64,000 nt of DNA from an uncultured Gemmatimonadota bacterium (GTDB lineage Bacteria > JAAXHH01). Shown here one piece after another: positions 1,183 through 21,395 of the stretch (position 1 is the stretch's first letter; each line of letters opens with the position of its first letter). The stretch covers positions 3,616,001 through 3,680,000 of the forward strand of contig OX638340.1 in NCBI GenBank assembly GCA_951812955.1, given 5' to 3'. The position numbers were made by a program, and so were the translations under genes. The notes beneath the pieces were generated by a model, which was given only the letters and a program-made list of their open reading frames with translations, was not told the origin of the DNA and made no database searches.

Positions 1183-1653
1183 ATGGAAGGCGGCGGCAGC
1201 GAAGGCTCCTGGCTCAACACGCTCATGGGACAGAACGTTCGGGTTATGACGCCGGGATCCGCCACGGAGGATCGCGTGACGGTCATCGAGGCCGTCGAGC
1301 CGCCCCACAGCTCGCCGCCCGTCTTCACCCGCCACGCCTTCATCGAGATGTTCCTGGTCGTCAGAGGTGCCCTGACGTTTCAGTTTCTACACGAAAGCGC
1401 CTTTGTGATCGAAGCTGGCCAGATGGTGACCGTACCCGGCTACCGGCCCCATTCCTTCTGGAACGAGGGGGACGACCCGGCGGCGGTCATGCTGATCTGC
1501 ACGCCCGCGGGGTTGGACCGGTTCTTCGAGGCTTCCGATCGGCTGCTTCGGCGCATGCCGCCGGACACGACCGATCCCGATGAGTTGAAAGCGGAGATGG
1601 CACGCCTTCGGAAGGAGTTCGGGCTGGAACACGTGGCGCCGGCGCCGCGGTGA
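1183..1653 (+). CDS. Cupin-domain protein (small single-cupin barrel)
   Basis: 156-aa ORF with strong RBS; sequence resembles the cupin_2 fold (…EMFLVVRGALTFQF…GQMVTVPGYRPHSFWNEGDDPAAVMLICTP…). Confidence 0.75.
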   Translation: MEGGGSEGSWLNTLMGQNVRVMTPGSATEDRVTVIEAVEPPHSSPPVFTRHAFIEMFLVVRGALTFQFLHESAFVIEAGQMVTVPGYRPHSFWNEGDDPAAVMLICTPAGLDRFFEASDRLLRRMPPDTTDPDELKAEMARLRKEFGLEHVAPAPR

Positions 1654-1954
1654 GGCTTGATTGTCTTAAGGAGGTAACGCTGTCGTTCAGATATACGTAA
1701 CTTCCCGAAAAGAACGTTACGGTGTCGACGAAACACCGTGGAATAGCACACGATTGAAGGATTTGATGTATCCTATAAACTGAGTTGACCCCGTTTAGTA
1801 CGTATGAATTTTTGTACAACGAGGAGTGTTCGACACAACTCCAAGAAATGTGAATCTGTCTACAAACTGGTAATCTTGGTTTTATGTGCACCGGGTAAAG
1901 TCAGTCCGCGTGGGTATGACAGCGTTTATCGGAAAGCTCGGTCGTATGAGGATC

Positions 1955-1960
1955 AAGGAG
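1955..1960 (+). promoter_or_regulatory. Ribosome binding site (AAGGAG) for TIR-like gene N-terminal segment
   Basis: AAGGAG lies 8 nt upstream of ATG 1969 (GTG at 1966). Confidence 0.55.
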
Positions 1961-1968
1961 TTGGCGTG

Positions 1969-2768
1969 ATGGCGAGAGTCCGAAAGTCAACTGCAATTGA
2001 ACGATTGCAGAGGTTGGTTGATGAGGCTTCAGAGCTGGATATGGAGGATGATAGCTCTCAGGAAGTTCAAAAATGGATACAGGACGTTTATACCGCTTTT
2101 ATCAACATATTCGGTGAGGATAGTTCTCAGTTTTCACGACTTCCGCAAAGTCACAAAACAACCCCAAGTGGGGTTCGTGAATACCTGAGATCAATGGTTT
2201 CCTGCGTCGCGTCTAGTCTCGATGAGATCAAGTACTTTCGGGAGGATGAAACAGAAACTGTGAAACAACCCTCAGAACAGGGTGACTTAAAAGCACCAGA
2301 TAAGGATTGTTACGACCAGGGATCGGCGACAAAAAAGTCTTTGTCGTTCATGGTCACGACGAGGCCGTCCTGCAGGCGGTTGCGAGATTTCTAGAAAAGC
2401 TGAAACTCGAACCAGTAATCCTGCACGAACAGGCGAATCAAGGCCGCACGATCATAGAGAAATTTGAGGATCATTCGGATGCGAGTTTTGCCGTGGTTCT
2501 GCTGACACCTGACGACATAGGCGCGGCCGTTACGGATAAGGCCGATCTACGGCACCGAGCTCGTCAGAACGTAATTCTCGAACTCGGATTCTTCATTGGG
2601 AAGTTGGGTCGCAACAGGGTCTGTGCTCTGAAATCGCGTTGTGTCGAAAATCCGTCGGACGTCGATGGGATGGTCTATATCAACCTCGACGAGCCAGATG
2701 CATGGAAGACCGGACTCGTGCGGGAGTTAATGGCAGCTGGTTTCGCCATCGACGCTAACTGGGTTTAG
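1969..2768 (+). pseudogene. TIR-like domain protein (COG4271/PF10137-type 'predicted nucleotide-binding protein containing TIR-like domain'), split by a -1 frameshift in an A6 homopolymer (2331-2336)
   Basis: The frame-1 ORF (1969..2394, helical N-terminal part) and the frame-0 ORF (2307..2768) overlap. The frame-0 product KKVFVVHGHDEAVLQAVARFLEKLKLEPVILHEQANQGRTIIEKFE…FAVVLLTPDDIG…RARQNVILELGFFIGKLGRNRVCAL…PSDVDGMVYI matches my recollection of the TIR-like family consensus. Adding one A to the run gacAAAAAAgtc fuses the two frames (…ATKKVFVVHG…). Confidence 0.55.
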
Positions 2769-2773
2769 CAGCC

Positions 2774-3079
2774 ATGAACGCACAGTTGTCGATTTCCAAA
2801 ACCGAATTGTCAGCCTATTGTAAAAATCATGGCATCCGACGATTAGCAATTTTCGGATCGGTGCTCCGGCCAGATTTTGGCCCGGAGAGCGATATCGACG
2901 TACTGGTCGAGTTCGCACCGAGTCACACTCCCGGTCTGCTGGGCATGGCCGGATTGGAGATTGAACTATCCGAATTGTTTGGCGGTCGGAAGGTGGACCT
3001 GCGGACTCCTGAGGAATTGAGTCGTTATTTTCGACAGAAGGTCATTGACACGGCAGAAGTTCTATATGTGCAGGGATGA
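2774..3079 (+). CDS. mnt: Minimal nucleotidyltransferase (MNT), antitoxin partner of the HepT/MNT type II TA family
   Basis: 101 aa; contains the hallmark GS-x9-13-DxD motif (LAIFGSVLRPDFGPESDIDVLVEF). It starts 6 nt after the TIR-like stop codon and its 3' end overlaps the following HepT remnant. Confidence 0.8.
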   Translation: MNAQLSISKTELSAYCKNHGIRRLAIFGSVLRPDFGPESDIDVLVEFAPSHTPGLLGMAGLEIELSELFGGRKVDLRTPEELSRYFRQKVIDTAEVLYVQG

Positions 3080-3188
3080 CGAAATCCCATTACAGCACAT
3101 GTTGGACGCCGAGCGGGAGGCAGTGTGTTTTTCACGAGGACACAGTTGGTTGCAGCCGCTAAGTCAAGCCTACCATATCGCGCGTGAA
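3066..3188 (+). pseudogene. hepT: HepT (HEPN, DUF86) toxin remnant, truncated to ~40 codons
   Basis: An ATG at 3066 overlaps the MNT stop in the usual MNT-HepT arrangement. The translation MCRDDEIPLQHMLDAEREAVCFSRGHSW… resembles a HepT N-terminus, but a stop follows after 40 codons, before where the Rx4-6H HEPN motif would lie. Confidence 0.45.
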
Positions 3189-3550
3189 TAGTAATCCAGG
3201 ATGGTGGTGTCCGAAGTCACGAGCAGGCATTTGTTCAATTTGGCCGTGGCCACGATCGTGCGGTCGACAGGATCCCGGTGATCCCAGTCCAGTTCGAGAT
3301 TCCCAATCCATGTCCGCACGTCCACTGGACGTACTTCAATCCGTTCGGTCCGTTCCAGATTTTATGCGAAGTCCTGAATGGACAGGGGCAACACAAGATC
3401 GGCCTTTTTCACCCTAACGCCGATCTCCCAGATCGAGATCGAACTGATGCACACGCGGTCGGCTTGTGTAATCGTCTGGTCGTCGATTTTGGACAGGCGT
3501 TCGGGATCCAGTGTCCAGAAAACAAGCGCGGACGTATCCAGTACGACCAT
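3172..3550 (-). pseudogene. PIN-domain (VapC-like) toxin gene disrupted by an in-frame TAA and a frameshift
   Basis: The N-terminal 62 codons (MVVLDTSALVFWTLDPE…) end at TAA (3362-3364). Read in the same frame, the next stretch is …IEVRPVDVRTWIGNLELDWDHRDPVDRTIVATA, which carries the conserved PIN motif. The C-terminal …LLVTSDTTILDYYSRA lies in another frame. Confidence 0.55.
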
Positions 3551-3780
3551 TACGTTTCATCCCATTCGTCGATTGTCGGTGTGTCGATGTCTCCATGATA
3601 GACGATCTTTCCCCGCAGTCCATCGAAGATCCTGTCAACCGATTGCTTTGGCTTTATGGGTTTTACACTGAGAACTGGACTCCGGTTATGCGTTACGATC
3701 AGATCCTCGCCCGATTCCTCGATTTCTCGAAATACCCGAAGCATATTGGCCTTCAGCTTGCTCTTCGATTTGAACAGCAT
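3550..3780 (-). CDS. Phd/YefM-family type II antitoxin
   Basis: 76 aa. KLKANMLRVFREIEESGEDLIVTHNRSPVLSVKPI matches the Phd/YefM N-terminal consensus. It overlaps the downstream PIN start by 1 nt (ATGA). Confidence 0.65.
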   Translation of the reverse strand: MLFKSKSKLKANMLRVFREIEESGEDLIVTHNRSPVLSVKPIKPKQSVDRIFDGLRGKIVYHGDIDTPTIDEWDET

Positions 3781-3950
3781 ATGGACTCCAGTCTGTTTAG
3801 TAAAAGACTATGGGCATGACCCTGGTTATATTCGAAGGATTTCCTATGAACCGTCAAGGATTTATCTCATTCTCGGCAACTTAGAAGTCGGATTCCGTGC
3901 GACTATTCCGACTGTATAGGTATGATGTTCAATTCAATGTGTAAGACAGG

Positions 3951-3979
3951 TTGACAATCGACGTCCCGACGTCTAATAT
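3951..3979 (+). promoter_or_regulatory. Sigma70-like promoter TTGACA-N17-TAATAT; start codon 7 nt after the -10 (probably a leaderless transcript); spacer contains two GACGTC palindromes
   Basis: TTGACA at 3951-3956, 17-nt spacer atCGACGTCccGACGTCta, TAATAT at 3974-3979, ATG at 3986. Confidence 0.5.
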
Positions 3980-3985
3980 TAAAAT

Positions 3986-5122
3986 ATGGCCACTAACACC
4001 GAAAGATACGCTCCTGGTCGAGTACGAGATGCGATAATCCGGGTGATGAGACTAACGACAGAAGGTTTGTCTGCTAAACAGATCGCAGCGAGAGTTGCAA
4101 AGATAGAGGGCCACATGCCTGAGTCCTCGATCAGGTCTTATCTTCGTCTGAACACTCCAGAGACATTTGTTCGTGAAAGGAGGGGGGTATACCGCCTTAA
4201 GGTAGATCATGACAGCAGTCTGCAACGAACGATGTTCAGGAGTCCACCTTGGCAGGAACCCTTCAAGTTTGGATCGGCTACATTGTTTCATAGTGAATGT
4301 TTGGATTGGCTGGACGCAAGAGATGACCAATCAATCCACGCGATAGTTACCGATCCACCTTACGGTCTGCAGGAATACACAGCGAAAGAGCAGACGAAAC
4401 TCCGAAATAGGAAGGGGGGGATCTGGAGGATTCCTCCTGCATTTGATGGCCACGTTCGTTCGCCGTTACCAAGATTCACTACTTTAACCGATGAACAAAA
4501 ACTTTATCTTCGGGAGTTTTTCTATATCTGGTCTCGTCTACTGATCCCCAAGTTGGTACCTGGCGCCAACGTGGTCGTTGCCTCCAATCCACTACTCTCC
4601 CACATTGTCGCCGGCGCTATAGCGGATTCGGGGCTTGAAAGACGCGGCGACATCGTCAGGCTTGTTATGACTATGCGTGGCGGTGATCGGCCAAAAGCGG
4701 CACATGATGAATTCAAGGACGTCAGTGTGCTCCCCAGATCAATGTGGGAGCCATGGCTGATATTCCGTAGGCCTGTGGAGGGAAGAGTACAGGACAACCT
4801 CAGAAAATGGAAAACGGGAGGGTTTCGACGGCCGACTGGACTCAAGCCATTCGGAGATGTTATTCAATCTTCCCCGACCAGAAAAAATGAGAAGGCGATA
4901 GCACCTCACCCCAGCCTTAAGCCACAATCCTTCTTACGACGCCTCGTGAGGGGTGTTCTTCCACTAGGTGAGGGTATAGTTGTCGATCCCTTTGCCGGCG
5001 CTGGCTCTACTCTCGCGGCCGCTGAAGCAGTTGGGTACGAGTCAATCGGAATAGAAAAGGATTCTCTGTACTTCAATATGGCCAAGGAAGCACTACAGCC
5101 ACTAGCCGAGCTCGAAGTGTAG
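3986..5122 (+). CDS. DNA methyltransferase (N6-adenine or N4-cytosine; beta-class, motif IV DPPY before motif I) with N-terminal helix-turn-helix-like domain
   Basis: 378 aa. Motif IV is VTDPPYG (aa ~120). Motif I is VVDPFAGAGSTLAAA near the C-terminus. The N-terminal 70 aa (…LSAKQIAARVAKIEG…) look like a winged-helix domain. Confidence 0.8.
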   Translation: MATNTERYAPGRVRDAIIRVMRLTTEGLSAKQIAARVAKIEGHMPESSIRSYLRLNTPETFVRERRGVYRLKVDHDSSLQRTMFRSPPWQEPFKFGSATLFHSECLDWLDARDDQSIHAIVTDPPYGLQEYTAKEQTKLRNRKGGIWRIPPAFDGHVRSPLPRFTTLTDEQKLYLREFFYIWSRLLIPKLVPGANVVVASNPLLSHIVAGAIADSGLERRGDIVRLVMTMRGGDRPKAAHDEFKDVSVLPRSMWEPWLIFRRPVEGRVQDNLRKWKTGGFRRPTGLKPFGDVIQSSPTRKNEKAIAPHPSLKPQSFLRRLVRGVLPLGEGIVVDPFAGAGSTLAAAEAVGYESIGIEKDSLYFNMAKEALQPLAELEV

Positions 5123-5141
5123 GGACTGAAGGAATCCTCAA

Positions 5142-5672
5142 TTACCTGTCTAGGTAAATCCAGTTCTCGCGAAGTTTACTCACGCCAAAGCGGTCAAGTG
5201 TGGCAGTTCGTGTGCCGAGTTCCCCTCTCGGATTGCGTCTAAAGTCTTCGATGGTTACCCTAGATAGGTAGACTTCCCTAAACGTCATTGGAAGTCTTGA
5301 TGAAGAGGGTTCGGTTTTGTTATCGACCTCGTATACAAATACACACATCCACTGGTCGCGCGCGCCATGTGTATCGACCGCACCGCCTTTTTTCTTCGTG
5401 GTTTTGATTTCAAGACCCTGATCTCCCGACTTAACGGAGTTTTCTGCGTAAACTCCCTGAACGAGAAGGTCAGGATGGCCATTGAAGTAGTTGTTTTCAG
5501 TAAGCACCCTTGAATGTTTAGCCAGACTGGCCGTCAGCATGTCCGATAGCACACCAGACATGATAGCGGGTCTCAACATATCGTCAAGCCGTTCCAGTCC
5601 GCGGTCTACCAGATGAGAATTGACATCGTGGAAGAAATCATAAACGTCCTGCATTGCCGACTCGAAATCCAT
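5142..5672 (-). CDS. Putative type II restriction endonuclease (PD-(D/E)XK candidate) partner of the adjacent methyltransferase
   Basis: 176-aa ORF convergent with and 20 nt from the methyltransferase. Candidate catalytic motif …GHPDLLVQ…(20 aa)…GLEIKTTKKK. AT-rich like the rest of the island. Confidence 0.45.
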   Translation of the reverse strand: MDFESAMQDVYDFFHDVNSHLVDRGLERLDDMLRPAIMSGVLSDMLTASLAKHSRVLTENNYFNGHPDLLVQGVYAENSVKSGDQGLEIKTTKKKGGAVDTHGARDQWMCVFVYEVDNKTEPSSSRLPMTFREVYLSRVTIEDFRRNPRGELGTRTATLDRFGVSKLRENWIYLDR

Positions 5673-5864
5673 AATGCGGAGCTGATATGGTAAAGTCGAG
5701 TCAGGATTGAATGATTCTCTTACTACGACATTTCTGGATTGTTTGATCCGTTCGTCTCCTTCATGTTATCTGAATGCATGTTTCAACAAAATGTGATTTA
5801 CTGTGAATTTGTAAACCACTACCTACAATATCATGACCTAGAATCTCATGAAAGTAAAATCAAT

Positions 5865-7019
5865 CTATTCCTCCACGGCCCGCAGATCCAGCGCCAGGTC
5901 GCGGAAGCTCCGCACGCGGTGTAGGGTGACCAGGTTGGTGTCGTGCTGGTTCTTGCCGCCGCGCGCGGTGCGGGCGACGACGAGTAGATCGTCTCCGGAG
6001 ATGACCTGCGAGGCGTAGCTGAAGGACTCCATAATGCTCCTGCTCATGGCCACGCATCCGGCCTGGAACCAGTTGAGGGCGTCCATGCTGTACATAAGCA
6101 TTAGGATACGCCGCTCGTTTCCCGGCGGTCCGCTGAAACCGATTCGCCGAAGGGGTTCCCGGTCCTGCCACGGGTTCGTGGACAGGGTCACCGTGGTCCA
6201 GTAGAGACCGCCTTTATCGTCGTGGACGATCTGAAACTTGCACTGGGCGCCCGGCATGGGGTGGAACTGGAGGAAACGGTAGTCGAGGTTCCGACCGTCG
6301 TCCTCGACCCGTCCGATTGATGCCAGGCTCGACGTCGTGTGGCCATCGACGATCGTGCGCATGACCATCCGGATCTCGCCGTCCACCAGCACGATGTTGC
6401 CCTCCAGGAAGCTGTCGGCCGGCACCTTGTCCTTCAGGCTTTCGGGATATTTCCGCTGCGAGAGCACATCGGGGATACCAGGAAACCGGACGTGATTGGA
6501 CATGCGCCAGGCCGCCGGATCCAGGAGGTCTCGCGCCAGGTCGCCGGCCACCACCAGCGACTTCCAGTCGAAACGGCTGGGCGCGTCGCAGGTCTCGAAG
6601 GCGCGGTAGGCATGCCCGTTGTGGATCAATACCGGCGTCGGTGCGCAGTGGTGCTTCCCTTCGAAGAGCGTGACCGGCCCTTCCCAGGTGAAGCCGCCGT
6701 CCCGGGAGCGGCCGATGACGATGTCCCGGCTTTTGCGCTTGTTTCCGATGAGATAGGCGTCGTCCCCGTAGGCCCAGACGGTCGCCCAGATGAAATCCTG
6801 GCACGACGCGAGGGTCCACGTTGCGCCGTCGTCGTCACTGACCAGTACCTCGGTCTGATCCGGCACGGATTCCTTGAGCGGACTGGGACGGAACCATTCG
6901 TAACTGGCCAGCAGGCGTCCCGAGCGCATCCGCGCGATCGACGGTGAACCGGCGTATACGTTCTCCGGGTCGGGTGACGAGGCCAGTACCTGGTAGTCTT
7001 TGGCGAGCATTCGATTCAT
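5865..7019 (-). CDS. BNR-repeat (sialidase/neuraminidase-like) glycoside hydrolase family protein; no signal peptide
   Basis: 384 aa with Asp-box motifs SDDDGATW and SRDGGFTW. Confidence 0.75.
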   Translation of the reverse strand: MNRMLAKDYQVLASSPDPENVYAGSPSIARMRSGRLLASYEWFRPSPLKESVPDQTEVLVSDDDGATWTLASCQDFIWATVWAYGDDAYLIGNKRKSRDIVIGRSRDGGFTWEGPVTLFEGKHHCAPTPVLIHNGHAYRAFETCDAPSRFDWKSLVVAGDLARDLLDPAAWRMSNHVRFPGIPDVLSQRKYPESLKDKVPADSFLEGNIVLVDGEIRMVMRTIVDGHTTSSLASIGRVEDDGRNLDYRFLQFHPMPGAQCKFQIVHDDKGGLYWTTVTLSTNPWQDREPLRRIGFSGPPGNERRILMLMYSMDALNWFQAGCVAMSRSIMESFSYASQVISGDDLLVVARTARGGKNQHDTNLVTLHRVRSFRDLALDLRAVEE

Positions 7020-7286
7020 GTCTAACGACCTCCTGGTGATTGGGATGTAAAAACGATTCTACCCGGGTGCAACGCGCTTGTCAACGGGAAGGTACCCGCT
7101 GGATCCGCTCGAAATCGCGCTACCCGAATACGAGAGCGCGAGACCTTCCCATAGTTCTTTACACGCGGCGCCATATTGCCCTTGATCTGAATCGCCCCCG
7201 ACCTGTATCATAGAACCGATCACCAGGACAACCATTCCAGATACGAACATAGCGCATCGAACCGGGTCCGCCGGGAGGATACACTT

Positions 7287-8468
7287 ATGGCCGGAAAAAC
7301 CAACCTGTCCCGCAGAGACTTGCTGATCAAGGGAGGGCTCGCGACGGCCGGCATGGCGCTGCTGCCATCCCACGTACTGGCCCAGTTGGCCCAACTGGCG
7401 CGGGACGAGACGCCCGTGGACTGGATCGATGAATTCGGGCCGCCGCAAAGCCCCGATTTCGTCCTGCTGGACTGGAACGGACTCGAATCTTGGATTACGC
7501 CCGTAGACCAGTTCTTCTCGGCGAGCCACTATCCCGAGCCCACCGTGGCCGGAGAGGGCTACAGCCTGGAGGTTTCCGGCGCGGTAAGACAGAAGCTCAA
7601 TCTGAGCCTCGACGAAATCAAGTCCATGCCGAGCAAAGACGTTATCTTCACCCTCGAGTGCTCGGGTAACCGGGGCGTCCCCGTTTTCAGGGGCGGCGTG
7701 TACAACGCCCGGTGGACCGGCACGCCGCTGGCGCCGATCCTGGAACGGGCAGGGATGTGGGGGAACGGTATCGAGGTGGTTTTCTTCGGACACGATGAAG
7801 GGGTCGAGAACATCACGCCAATTCGAAGCGAACCGCTGGCGATGAAACAGAATTTCGCCCGGTCGCTGACCACGAAACAGGCGATGGATCCGGACATCCT
7901 GCTGGCCTATGAGGTTAACGGACAGACGCTGCCGCCGAAGCACGGATATCCCCTGCGGCTCATCGTACCCGGCTGGTACGGCATCACCCAGGTGAAGTGG
8001 CTGAAACGCATCGAGGTGCGCACTACCCGGTACATGGGCAGGTTCATTTCGCGGGATTACGTCACGGTCCGCGAGGAGACCCACAACGGGGAGACCGTAT
8101 GGCGCCAGGAATCTGTTGGAAAAGGCAGGATCAATTCCGTCACGGCACGGGTCACGCGGGTCGGTCCCCTGCACCGGATCTACGGCGCGGTATGGGGCGA
8201 ACCGCTCAGGGAGGTCCAGGTGCGCATCGATGACGGAGCATGGCAGACGGCCGAAATCATCGAGGGGCTGGACGCCGAACACGCCTGGAAGTTCTGGCGG
8301 TTGGACTGGGACAGGCCTTCAGCGGGCGAGCATACGATCACTTCACGGGGCGTAACGACGGGCGGCACGATACAGCCCGCGCCGGACGATCCCTACCTGG
8401 CCGGCAAGAAGACTTACTGGGAAAGTAACGGCCAGGTGACCCGGACTATTCAGATCTTCGAAAGCTAG
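7287..8468 (+). CDS. Sulfite-oxidase-family molybdopterin oxidoreductase with Tat signal peptide
   Basis: N-terminal SRRDLLIKGGLATAGMAL (twin-arginine). Moco-binding region …FTLECSGNRG…, plus a C-terminal dimerisation domain. RBS GGGAGG 8 nt upstream. Confidence 0.8.
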   Translation: MAGKTNLSRRDLLIKGGLATAGMALLPSHVLAQLAQLARDETPVDWIDEFGPPQSPDFVLLDWNGLESWITPVDQFFSASHYPEPTVAGEGYSLEVSGAVRQKLNLSLDEIKSMPSKDVIFTLECSGNRGVPVFRGGVYNARWTGTPLAPILERAGMWGNGIEVVFFGHDEGVENITPIRSEPLAMKQNFARSLTTKQAMDPDILLAYEVNGQTLPPKHGYPLRLIVPGWYGITQVKWLKRIEVRTTRYMGRFISRDYVTVREETHNGETVWRQESVGKGRINSVTARVTRVGPLHRIYGAVWGEPLREVQVRIDDGAWQTAEIIEGLDAEHAWKFWRLDWDRPSAGEHTITSRGVTTGGTIQPAPDDPYLAGKKTYWESNGQVTRTIQIFES

Positions 8469-20452: not shown

Positions 20453-20863
20453 ATGAGCTCAGTACCGGAACCGGATCAAGAGGAAGATCTTATGGGGAAA
20501 ATCATGAATGATTCCGCGAGCGTATCCGTTTTCGAGGTCGTTGGCAACGCTCTTTGCGTTGCTTCCGACGACGGCCAGAGAGTACACGACCGACTTTCGA
20601 CTGCATTGAAGGATAGCCGCCATGTGAATCTTTCTTTTCGCAACGTGACATCGCTTACTTCGGCTTTTCTGAACACCGCGGTCGGCCAATTGTATGGAAC
20701 CTTCAGCGAAGATCATATACGTACGCAGTTGAACATCGAAGAAATGTCCCTGGATGATCTGGTGTTACTCGAGCGTGTGGTCGACACAGCGAAGCAATAC
20801 TTCAAAGACCCTCAAAGATTCGAACAAGCGCTTCGTGAGGAAATGGATGACTATGACGACTGA
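20453..20863 (+). CDS. STAS-like small protein (DUF4325-like), in a low-GC patch
   Basis: 136 aa. …HVNLSFRNVTSLTSAFLNTAVGQLYGTF… resembles the DUF4325/STAS-like consensus. Lower GC than flanks. The 3' end overlaps the next gene's start. Confidence 0.5.
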   Translation: MSSVPEPDQEEDLMGKIMNDSASVSVFEVVGNALCVASDDGQRVHDRLSTALKDSRHVNLSFRNVTSLTSAFLNTAVGQLYGTFSEDHIRTQLNIEEMSLDDLVLLERVVDTAKQYFKDPQRFEQALREEMDDYDD

Positions 20864-21395
20864 TTCCAAGGCGCTCGCGGTGAATGAACACGAATTCAGT
20901 CGTAGAGATAGGTTGTTTCTTGATACTAATATCTGGTTGTATCTATTCGGTCCGCATAAACCCAAGGCAAGAGCGATCGACACGTATTCAAGTGTGCTTA
21001 AGCGGATTCTGGATGCGGGTAGCAGAATCTATATCGACGTTCTGATCGTTTCAGAGTTCATCAACGCATGCGCCAGGTTGAATTGGCATCTTGCAACAAA
21101 CAGGAAAATTGGTTTCAAAGCATTTCGAAATTCGTCATCTTTCAAATCAGTCGCCAGGTCGGTGTCAAGCGACGCCGCGCGGGTTATGTCCCACTGCTTG
21201 CGTGTGGAAAGTGGATTCTCGGACATGGCCGCGACCGAATTGCTCAATGAATTTGTCACCGGAAAATGCGACTTCAACGATCAAGTTATCATAAGACTCT
21301 GTAAAAAAGAAGAACTAACCCTGATTACACACGACGCCGATTTCAAAGGCGCGGGGATTCCGATTTTGACAGCGAACCATCGTCTTCTGAACTAA
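20847..21395 (+). CDS. PIN-domain protein (VapC-like ribonuclease fold)
   Basis: LFLDTNIWLYLF (Asp-1 motif), YIDVLIVSEFINACAR (Glu motif), LTLITHDADFKG (C-terminal Asp motif). Start MTMTTDSK overlaps the preceding stop. Confidence 0.65.
   Translation: MTMTTDSKALAVNEHEFSRRDRLFLDTNIWLYLFGPHKPKARAIDTYSSVLKRILDAGSRIYIDVLIVSEFINACARLNWHLATNRKIGFKAFRNSSSFKSVARSVSSDAARVMSHCLRVESGFSDMAATELLNEFVTGKCDFNDQVIIRLCKKEELTLITHDADFKGAGIPILTANHRLLN

Follow-up and report, generated by a model that had tools for sequence, protein, structure and literature searches.

Core defence hotspots of Pseudomonas aeruginosa have conserved flanks, a lower guanine-plus-cytosine (GC) content and no consistent mobile element, and flank recombination has been proposed as their transfer route (PMC10250203). 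Hotspots without detectable mobile elements have also been reported in Escherichia coli (PMC10121019), and sponge symbionts are enriched in restriction-modification (R-M) and toxin-antitoxin (TA) genes (PMC5649159). Here we analyzed a 64-kb stretch of contig OX638340.1 from an uncultured Gemmatimonadota bacterium (hereafter the window), in which a low-GC slot at positions 1654-5864 lies between two convergent genes encoding a cupin and a BNR/sialidase-like protein. We consider, with a probability of about 0.72, that a chromosomal defence hotspot lies between the cupin and BNR/sialidase-like genes in a clade of sponge-associated bacteria and that this interval is its present cargo.

The locus shares several properties with the P. 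aeruginosa (cDHS1/cDHS2) and E. coli core defence hotspots: a fixed slot is bounded by conserved core genes, the cargo ranges from nothing to many kb of defence and addiction modules of lower GC with no consistent integrase, and close strains carry different cargo whereas diverged strains may carry the same one.

A slot with variable cargo among relatives

Using the BNR-like protein as the anchor for locating the slot, a scan of species-representative genomes returned 30 loci in metagenome-assembled genomes (MAGs) labelled Latescibacterota or Gemmatimonadetes, and one further island contig was found in an assembly of the sponge Aplysina aerophoba (MKWU). Both flanking genes are present on the fetched stretch in 19 genomes, where the cupin and BNR-like genes, together with genes for a molybdenum cofactor (Moco) oxidoreductase and an M28-peptidase/FtsX protein, flank the slot; the cupin gene adjoins it in nearly all relatives. 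Slots measure between 66 bp and 6.3 kb, apart from three that are longer than 10 kb (L008, L018 and L038), and at least ten different contents were seen. Two slots are empty (66 bp in L026 and 149 bp in L024), six of ~745 bp contain only a Phd-like/PIN toxin-antitoxin pair (L013, L014, L015, L017, L019 and L023), L020 combines this pair with an MNT-HepT pair, L022 does likewise with a broken HepT, and L021 has a methylase without nuclease plus Phd-PIN. The full window-like set is found in L016 and L037, and other cargo of up to 6.3 kb in L007, L009, L011, L012 and L031. Additional genes in the slots of relatives encode SLFN_AlbA_2/HATPase_c_4 proteins, AAA_21/SMC-type ATPases and a Mrr-helicase-methylase fusion. 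All occupied slots are lower in GC than their own flanks, defence and addiction genes dominate the cargo across slots, and no single mobile-element class accounts for it.

The features of the slot and its flanks in the window are as follows:

1183-1653, forward strand: cupin gene, left flanking core gene (Pfam Cupin_2, 3.6e-11; tblastn identity of 77-94% in L007-L031).
1654-1767, no strand: polymorphic junction 3' of the cupin gene, with two allelic types and a hairpin at 1719-1739.
1768-5884, no strand: exchanged cargo unit of ~4.1 kb, near-identical in three lineages with diverged flanks.
1768-1968, forward strand: promoter-like segment (TTGACC at 1785-1790) and ~170-nt leader before the TIR-like gene, placed by alignment of slot left edges and leaders.
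1969-2394, forward strand: N-terminal domain of the TIR-like gene in frame 1 (PADLOC PDC-S35, profile positions 4-102, E = 6.1e-5).
2329-2337, forward strand: frameshift site, where one C is absent at 2329/2330 relative to nine related contigs (GACCAAAAAAG to GACAAAAAAG).
2337-2768, forward strand: TIR-like (CAP12/PycTIR-type) domain in frame 3 (Pfam PF10137 CAP12-PCTIR_TIR, 4e-40; PADLOC PDC-S35, 3.6e-72).
2774-3079, forward strand: MNT/MntA-type nucleotidyltransferase antitoxin, intact (Pfam NTP_transf_2, 5.4e-11, and Polbeta, 2.7e-11; GS...DxD motif).
3066-3191, forward strand: HepT toxin stump of 41 codons, whose start overlaps the MNT stop by 14 nt.
3170-3550, reverse strand: PIN (VapC-like) toxin pseudogene with an in-frame TAA at 3362-3364 (Pfam PIN on both halves).
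3550-3780, reverse strand: Phd/YefM-like antitoxin of 76 amino acids (aa), intact, whose stop overlaps the PIN start (TAATG).
3781-3985, no strand: divergent promoter region between the Phd-like and methyltransferase genes, with a sigma-70-like site at 3951-3979 facing the latter.
3986-5122, forward strand: type II DNA methyltransferase of the N6/N4 class, intact (Pfam N6_N4_Mtase PF01555, 2.1e-16; PADLOC MTase_II, 1.8e-100).
5142-5747, reverse strand: type II restriction endonuclease of an unnamed family, apparently intact (ATG at 5672; probable ATC start at 5747-5745; PD...EIK).
5865-7019, reverse strand: BNR/sialidase-like gene, right flanking core gene (BNR_2, E = 0.001, below the cut-off; 78-97% identity in L007-L031).

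An earlier reading made from the letters alone (the original prediction) had described this content as consisting only of defence and addiction-type genes, and this description holds. Its picture of a single acquired 4.2-kb island does not hold, since Phd-PIN occupies the position in most relatives and each module has its own history; related slots are empty, partly filled or differently filled, and intact versions of the modules were found there. It had also regarded the mechanism of acquisition as not evident, and the kind of locus is now clear, namely a hotspot flanked by core genes with empty, small and large states. We propose that the cargo is modular, with a resident Phd-like/PIN pair in the middle; the TIR-like single-gene defence candidate and MNT-HepT would enter on the cupin side and the compact type II R-M pair on the BNR side, and modules would be gained, lost and replaced independently among relatives.

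The versions longer than 10 kb (L018 17149-20355, L008 11757-20302 and L038 7270-12447) carry SLFN_AlbA_2, a 1359-aa helix-turn-helix (HTH) protein, AAA_13/SMC ATPases and the Mrr-helicase-methylase fusion.

Composition and extent of the low-GC interval

The GC content of the window is 0.63-0.65 up to position ~1600, 0.445-0.54 at 1601-6000 and 0.59-0.65 beyond, and the slot as a whole averages 0.489, compared with 0.631 in the adjoining flanks and 0.600 over the entire window. Among sliding 4-kb pieces of the 64 kb, the piece at 2001-6000 is the poorest in GC (0.499), the most distant in k-mer frequencies and the least correlated with the window in tetranucleotide usage (0.747, compared with 0.79-0.93 for other pieces), and is the most atypical of all; uniform composition was not seen. 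GC at third codon positions (GC3) is 0.43-0.68 in island genes versus 0.79-0.83 in flanking genes. The predicted drop in composition between the cupin and sialidase-like genes is therefore borne out by GC, GC3 and tetranucleotide usage. The proposed bounds (1655-5860, ~4.2 kb; GC measured here as 0.49) need adjustment: the recently exchanged unit is 1768-5884, and the junction at 1654-1767, which differs by 36% from L010/L001 and by only 3.5% from L046, belongs to the flank and lies outside the exchanged cargo.

Considering that MAGs can hold chimeric joins at composition breaks, the low-GC block might be another organism's DNA joined by binning or assembly. This is extremely unlikely, because both junctions recur in at least ten independent contigs (JGI, ENA, Logan and NCBI; different samples) and the slot is also occupied in chromosome-level MAGs.

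At the left edge, TTGACC and the leader of 1768-1968 persist in L007 and L011, where SLFN_AlbA_2 replaces the TIR gene. A consensus promoter scan did not pick up the promoter-like segment at 1785-1790, promoter and terminator scans gave counts no higher than in shuffles, and an Rfam search of 1400-6200 including the leader at a permissive threshold gave no match.

Two other regions of the window were noted in passing. A second low-GC insert (0.52-0.54) lies at 20453-21395 between two PhyH dioxygenase genes and encodes a DUF4325 (STAS-like) protein and a PIN-domain protein, which probably form another toxin-antitoxin-like pair. A stretch at 680-1120 that is hypervariable between strains comprises the low-complexity C-terminal tail of the M28-peptidase/FtsX protein and the spacer that follows; its coding part differs by indels of 18, 45, 27 and 3 nt that keep the frame, and divergence is 25-37%.

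Recent spread of the cargo

The same cargo was found in three lineages, represented by the window, by L010 together with L001-L006 (JGI, Logan, ENA and NCBI assemblies), and by L046. In all three pairs among the window, L010 and L046, the region 1768-5884 differs by 0.34-0.56% and the flanks by 3.3-6.8% (Fisher p <= 3e-21). Synonymous divergence (dS) is 0-0.04 in island genes versus 0.11-0.18 in the cupin, BNR and Moco genes, a contrast of about twenty-fold when the two sets are compared. These data indicate that the cargo at 1768-5884 spread horizontally and recently between strains.

It could instead be supposed that the region is an old resident, with low GC caused by the nature of its genes and low divergence caused by strong purifying selection. 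The synteny of Phd-PIN in most relatives and the ratios of nonsynonymous to synonymous divergence (dN/dS) of 0.04-0.3 in all intact genes would fit such a history. However, conservation relative to the flanks is just as high at synonymous sites and in pseudogenes and intergenic stretches, with only 0-2 differences in the HepT stump, the PIN pseudogene and the intergenic stretches, so purifying selection is not the explanation; moreover, the slot is empty or otherwise filled in related genomes. Long residence is thus very unlikely, and recent horizontal exchange is preferred.

All three lineages have the PIN nonsense codon and the HepT deletion, which therefore predate the spread; neither lesion originated in this genome, since the cargo carrying them is near-identical between lineages whose flanks have diverged. 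The 4.1-kb combination, including the dead PIN and the truncated HepT, appears to have spread between at least three lineages, most likely through recombination anchored in conserved sequences at the cargo edges. On the left, the exchanged unit starts at the promoter-like segment and leader, which are kept across many slot variants even before different cargo; on the right, it stops inside the conserved 3' end of the BNR gene.

Comparisons with more distant relatives point to a mosaic history. Relative to L007 the flanks are close (dS 0.15) and the R-M genes have dS >1.7, relative to L016 and L021 the R-M genes have diverged less than the flanks, and the TIR, MNT, PIN and Phd genes are as diverged as the flanks or more.

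Mobility and the origin of the cargo

No integrase or transposase gene was found in the window, as originally predicted, and a tRNA/tmRNA scan of the whole window detected none. Searches for direct and inverted repeats around and inside the interval, the flanks included, returned short matches at chance level only, with none at the two edges, and the empty sites of L024 and L026 have no attachment-site-like scar in common with the window edges. An integron cassette array (cluster of attC sites lacking integron integrases, CALIN) was considered and rejected, given the mixed orientations and the lack of recurrent inverted repeats between modules in a repeat search that involved no dedicated attC model.

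Low GC and atypical tetranucleotide usage, the sharp and reproducible ends of the exchanged unit, same-family R-M pairs on phage-like contigs and the IS3 transposases of the L018 version might suggest that a single integrative mobile element, such as an island, prophage or fragment of an integrative and conjugative element, inserted once, later lost its integrase and survives as this decayed interval. The window, however, has neither an integrase nor a tRNA gene, nor any attachment site, flanking direct repeats or terminal inverted repeats, and no attachment-like scar marks the empty sites. In addition, Phd-PIN stands alone in six fetched relatives and the modules are discordant in divergence, which argues against delivery as one element. 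We therefore regard a single-element origin as unlikely.

Several observations weigh against the interpretation as a hotspot cargo that is exchanged by flank recombination and decays in a preferred order. The low-divergence tract ends alike in every comparison, at ~1768 on the left and between 5722 and 5885 on the right; these ends lie ~115 bp past the cupin stop and within ~20 bp of the BNR stop codon. Recombination anchored in the flanks would drag along variable lengths of flank, so these sharp common ends are poorly explained, and they could reflect insertion by a site-specific or an illegitimate route. Mobile elements do occur in one version of the slot: L018, and no other genome, carries two IS3-family transposases there. 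The number of independent lesions behind the order of decay is small (five versus none), PDC-S35 is only a candidate defence family, and the gene functions given here are predictions.

The TIR-like gene and its frameshift

The N-terminal part proper of the TIR-like gene spans 1969-2331; past the frameshift, frame 1 meets a stop at 2392-2394, whereas the PF10137 domain continues in frame 3. The N-terminal open reading frame (ORF) is 99% identical to the intact 266-aa gene of L001/L010. In nine related contigs (L001-L006, L010 and L046, plus a pattern match in L047) the gene is a single ORF of 266 aa, and it is intact in L001-L006, L010, L037, L038 and L046. Of the 120 best homologues, nearly all consist of one ORF of ~245-320 aa, mostly 265-271 aa. 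In the window a 1-nt deletion splits the gene. The lesion is present in the window sequence and private to this assembly; an exact-pattern metagenome scan in which both alleles were allowed returned one contig, with the in-frame allele only. Exact look-ups of the BNR and cupin proteins of the window gave no record, hence no second assembly of the same strain. The frameshift described in the original prediction is thus real in the sequence, with the qualification that this private single-base deletion is indistinguishable from an assembly error.

Either the gene would have just been broken by a one-base deletion, or the base was mis-assembled. The latter, under which only two of the four modules would be truly damaged in this genome, is possible: the frameshift is private, the extra C is present in nine closely related contigs, and the site adjoins a run of six A residues (the 0 frame of the broken gene reads A_AAA_AAG), where base callers err. 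On the other hand, it is the sole coding-region indel in 11.2 kb aligned with L010, implying that the assembly is not generally error-prone, and the TIR gene is inactivated in relatives as well, by a 1-nt loss in L016 and a large internal deletion in L012. Partnerless in these slots, the TIR gene is often found broken (window, L016 and L012). A genuine recent break would remain the favored account.

The L016 loss (slot ~749-760) is at most 8 nt from the window frameshift, in an independently diverged lineage, and falls at the same A-rich linker/TIR junction (AGC AAA AAA TCT). Programmed -1 frameshifting was considered for the window gene and rejected: the heptamer is canonical, yet nearly all 120 homologues are single ORFs, and the downstream hairpin lacks significance (z = -1.63) and begins just 2 nt past the heptamer. 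Because the in-frame allele is 99.6% identical, the lesion is better viewed as a very recent mutation than as an evolved signal. Two 148-aa 'TIR-only' proteins (P0180 and P0182) proved to be start-codon gene-calling artefacts of intact genes; the corresponding public calls, at 6001-6447 in both L037 and L038, lie in full 266-270-aa frames that are open in both.

The MNT-HepT and Phd-PIN modules

The MNT gene scores 43 bits with NTP_transf_2 (cut-off 21) and contains the GS...DxD motif (GSVLRPDFGPESDID); the NCBIfam MntA model gives 4e-10 and 39.5 bits, which is below its cut-off of 60. Alignment with the intact 118-120-aa HepT proteins of L012, L016 and L020 restricts the homology of the HepT stump to its first ~22 codons. 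A deletion of ~330 bp removed HepT from codon ~23 onward into the spacer before PIN, including the RX4HXY motif, which is absent from the window and present in L012, L016 and L020 (GMRNRLVHAY/HANF). The L016 copy matches Pfam HepT-like with 1.3e-20.

In the PIN gene, the TAA replaces codon 63, which is E or K in relatives, and interrupts the domain, while the four acidic catalytic residues remain; as these are unchanged, the lesion appears to be young. Intact 126-aa PIN orthologues are present in at least 14 relatives. The Phd-like protein matches Pfam PhdYeFM with E values of 0.046 (window) and 2.4e-4 (a relative), both below the gathering score. Its gene is kept upstream of PIN in relatives, with the exception of L012, which has no Phd, and its position and 1-nt overlap fit a Phd-PIN pair. 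A degenerate copy of the palindromic operator found upstream of Phd in relatives is recognizable at 3781-3985. In this genome, MNT and Phd are left as orphan antitoxins.

The PIN gene of L012 (slot 2885-3346, reverse strand), which lacks any accompanying Phd, has substitutions at two catalytic positions (E to V and D to N). It resembles a more advanced point along the same route of decay.

The type II restriction-modification pair

The methyltransferase has DPPY and FAGAG, the catalytic and S-adenosylmethionine-binding motifs, an N-terminal HTH-like extension, and dN/dS values of 0.04-0.07. The nuclease has no match in Pfam, NCBIfam, PADLOC or PDB sequences; a fold search assigned it to the restriction-endonuclease fold with a PD-(D/E)XK motif, with the best structural matches in the EcoRV/NaeI branch (NaeI, ThaI, SwaI, BglI, SfiI and EcoRV). 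More than 8000 homologues, all unnamed and including copies from Chloroflexi and Dehalococcoidia MAGs, share >=80% identity with it, and 566 representatives exist at the 50% cluster level. A PD...ExK signature (NGHPD ... G[VI]E[VI]K) is evident when the family is aligned, and its residues P92, E113 and K115 vary little or not at all. In unrelated genomes the nuclease is always convergent with an N6_N4 methylase of 378-384 aa, and in Dehalococcoidia and other phyla the pair lies between housekeeping genes with no adjoining integrase or transposase at those loci. The fold, the signature and the constant convergent methylase partner together support the type II R-M reading. The pair forms a self-contained unit and, with no lesion seen in it, is probably functional in this genome. 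A search of the 64 kb for palindrome avoidance that might reveal its target showed only the universal depletion of CTAG.

The same nuclease family (68-71% identity) also occurs as an R-M pair at 5989-7550 on two IMG/VR contigs (L054 and L055) with a phage-like replication module comprising a DnaB-type helicase, a replication initiator and an HNH nuclease.

The existence of a type II R-M pair, as originally predicted, is supported, and only the start of the nuclease needs revision, probably to ATC 5747 in place of ATG 5672 (201 versus 176 aa). The 25 codons 5' of ATG 5672 encode FNPxxxLPYxLR, which is kept family-wide, including in relatives of 33-50% identity. This segment is modelled with a predicted local distance difference test (pLDDT) score >90, is in frame in all clade members, and differs from L016 by six synonymous changes and one non-synonymous change. 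It contains no ATG, GTG or TTG in the window, L010, L016, L007 or L037. In these same five sequences an ATC (5747-5745, reverse strand) is kept 8 nt past AAGGAG (5761-5756); homologues in other phyla have their third codon, the Ile of Met-Pro-Ile, at this place. Translation from AUC at 5747 is therefore the most likely prediction.

The order of decay

With addiction modules, a cell that loses the antitoxin or methylase is killed by the still active toxin or nuclease. HepT has been lost with MNT intact three times independently: by a 3' deletion in the window lineage, by an internal deletion plus a stop in L022, and by an ATG to ATA change plus a different internal deletion in L037. In the window lineage PIN has a nonsense codon with Phd intact, and L021 lacks the nuclease gene while its methylase is 97% identical. 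No antitoxin-only or methylase-only loss was seen among the slots of relatives. All five lesions struck the toxic partner first (5/5; binomial p = 0.03 on an even expectation). The claim that the toxic partner is broken and the protective one intact was thus confirmed in the window, whose sequence contains all three lesions, and recurs across relatives. The pattern need not stem from the proposed cause, selection against toxic components: the constraint that addiction modules place on the order of loss, whereby losing the protective partner first is lethal, gives the same outcome, and decay would strike the toxic partner first for this reason.

A different view is that the block is an 'attenuated' cassette that is under selection and has been sweeping recently: all of its dangerous activities would be throttled or silenced, and the orphan Phd and MNT would be kept because they neutralize incoming homologous toxins. 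The nuclease would then be throttled via its conserved non-canonical AUC start, a -1 slip at A_AAA_AAG would restore the exact wild-type TIR protein, and the break in the L016 TIR gene close to the same spot, together with the dead PIN and HepT, would belong to the same pattern. This view is speculative and we consider it improbable; turnover of a hotspot cargo under the order-of-loss constraint is the explanation that we prefer.

The locus offers a compact and well-resolved example of defence and addiction gene turnover in uncultivated sponge symbionts: one slot displays every stage, from empty through a single TA pair to a multi-system island, and a pre-decayed block still spreads between strains. 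In addition, the unnamed and very widespread type II nuclease family, for which no family model exists, may interest those who mine restriction enzymes.

Comparison with known systems

At the level of single modules, the TIR-like gene resembles PDC-S35 proteins and the CAP12-PCTIR_TIR effectors of the cyclic-oligonucleotide-based antiphage signalling system (CBASS) and the pyrimidine cyclase system for antiphage resistance (Pycsar), with a C-terminal PF10137 domain, a ~120-aa N-terminal domain and, as in PDC-S35 profiles, an overall length of ~266 aa. It differs from CBASS/Pycsar effectors in that no cyclase is encoded in the window or in any related slot, and it is therefore not considered one of them; the NCBIfam Cap12 score is 36 bits versus a cut-off of 450. 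It differs from PDC-S35, itself a candidate family, in being split. The MNT-HepT module corresponds to MntA-HepT (type VII) in having MNT followed by an overlapping HepT, with intact pairs in L012, L016, L020 and L038, whereas the window keeps the antitoxin-side enzyme only. The Phd-PIN module is VapBC-like with a Phd/YefM antitoxin, consisting of a small antitoxin gene that overlaps a 126-aa PIN gene by one base, with a palindromic operator upstream in relatives and the four acidic PIN residues; it differs by the nonsense codon of the window lineage and by an antitoxin that is sub-threshold for Phd/YefM.

The R-M pair resembles type II systems in its convergent methylase and small nuclease with the PD...ExK motif, and mobile two-gene type II units in being kept across phyla and dropped between housekeeping genes. 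It departs from them in that the nuclease family lacks a model in Pfam, NCBIfam or PADLOC and a PDB sequence match, and in that the nuclease of this clade has no canonical start codon for its conserved N-terminus.

Compared with the core defence hotspots of P. aeruginosa and E. coli, the present slot is smaller (0.07 to >10 kb versus a median of 26 kb), belongs to uncultivated sponge symbionts, has a resident TA pair as a fixed core with two insertion points, and exchanges a tract that ends sharply at the cargo edges. Current concepts are unchanged by this locus, which behaves like known core defence hotspots and clearly exemplifies a kind already described, not a new one.

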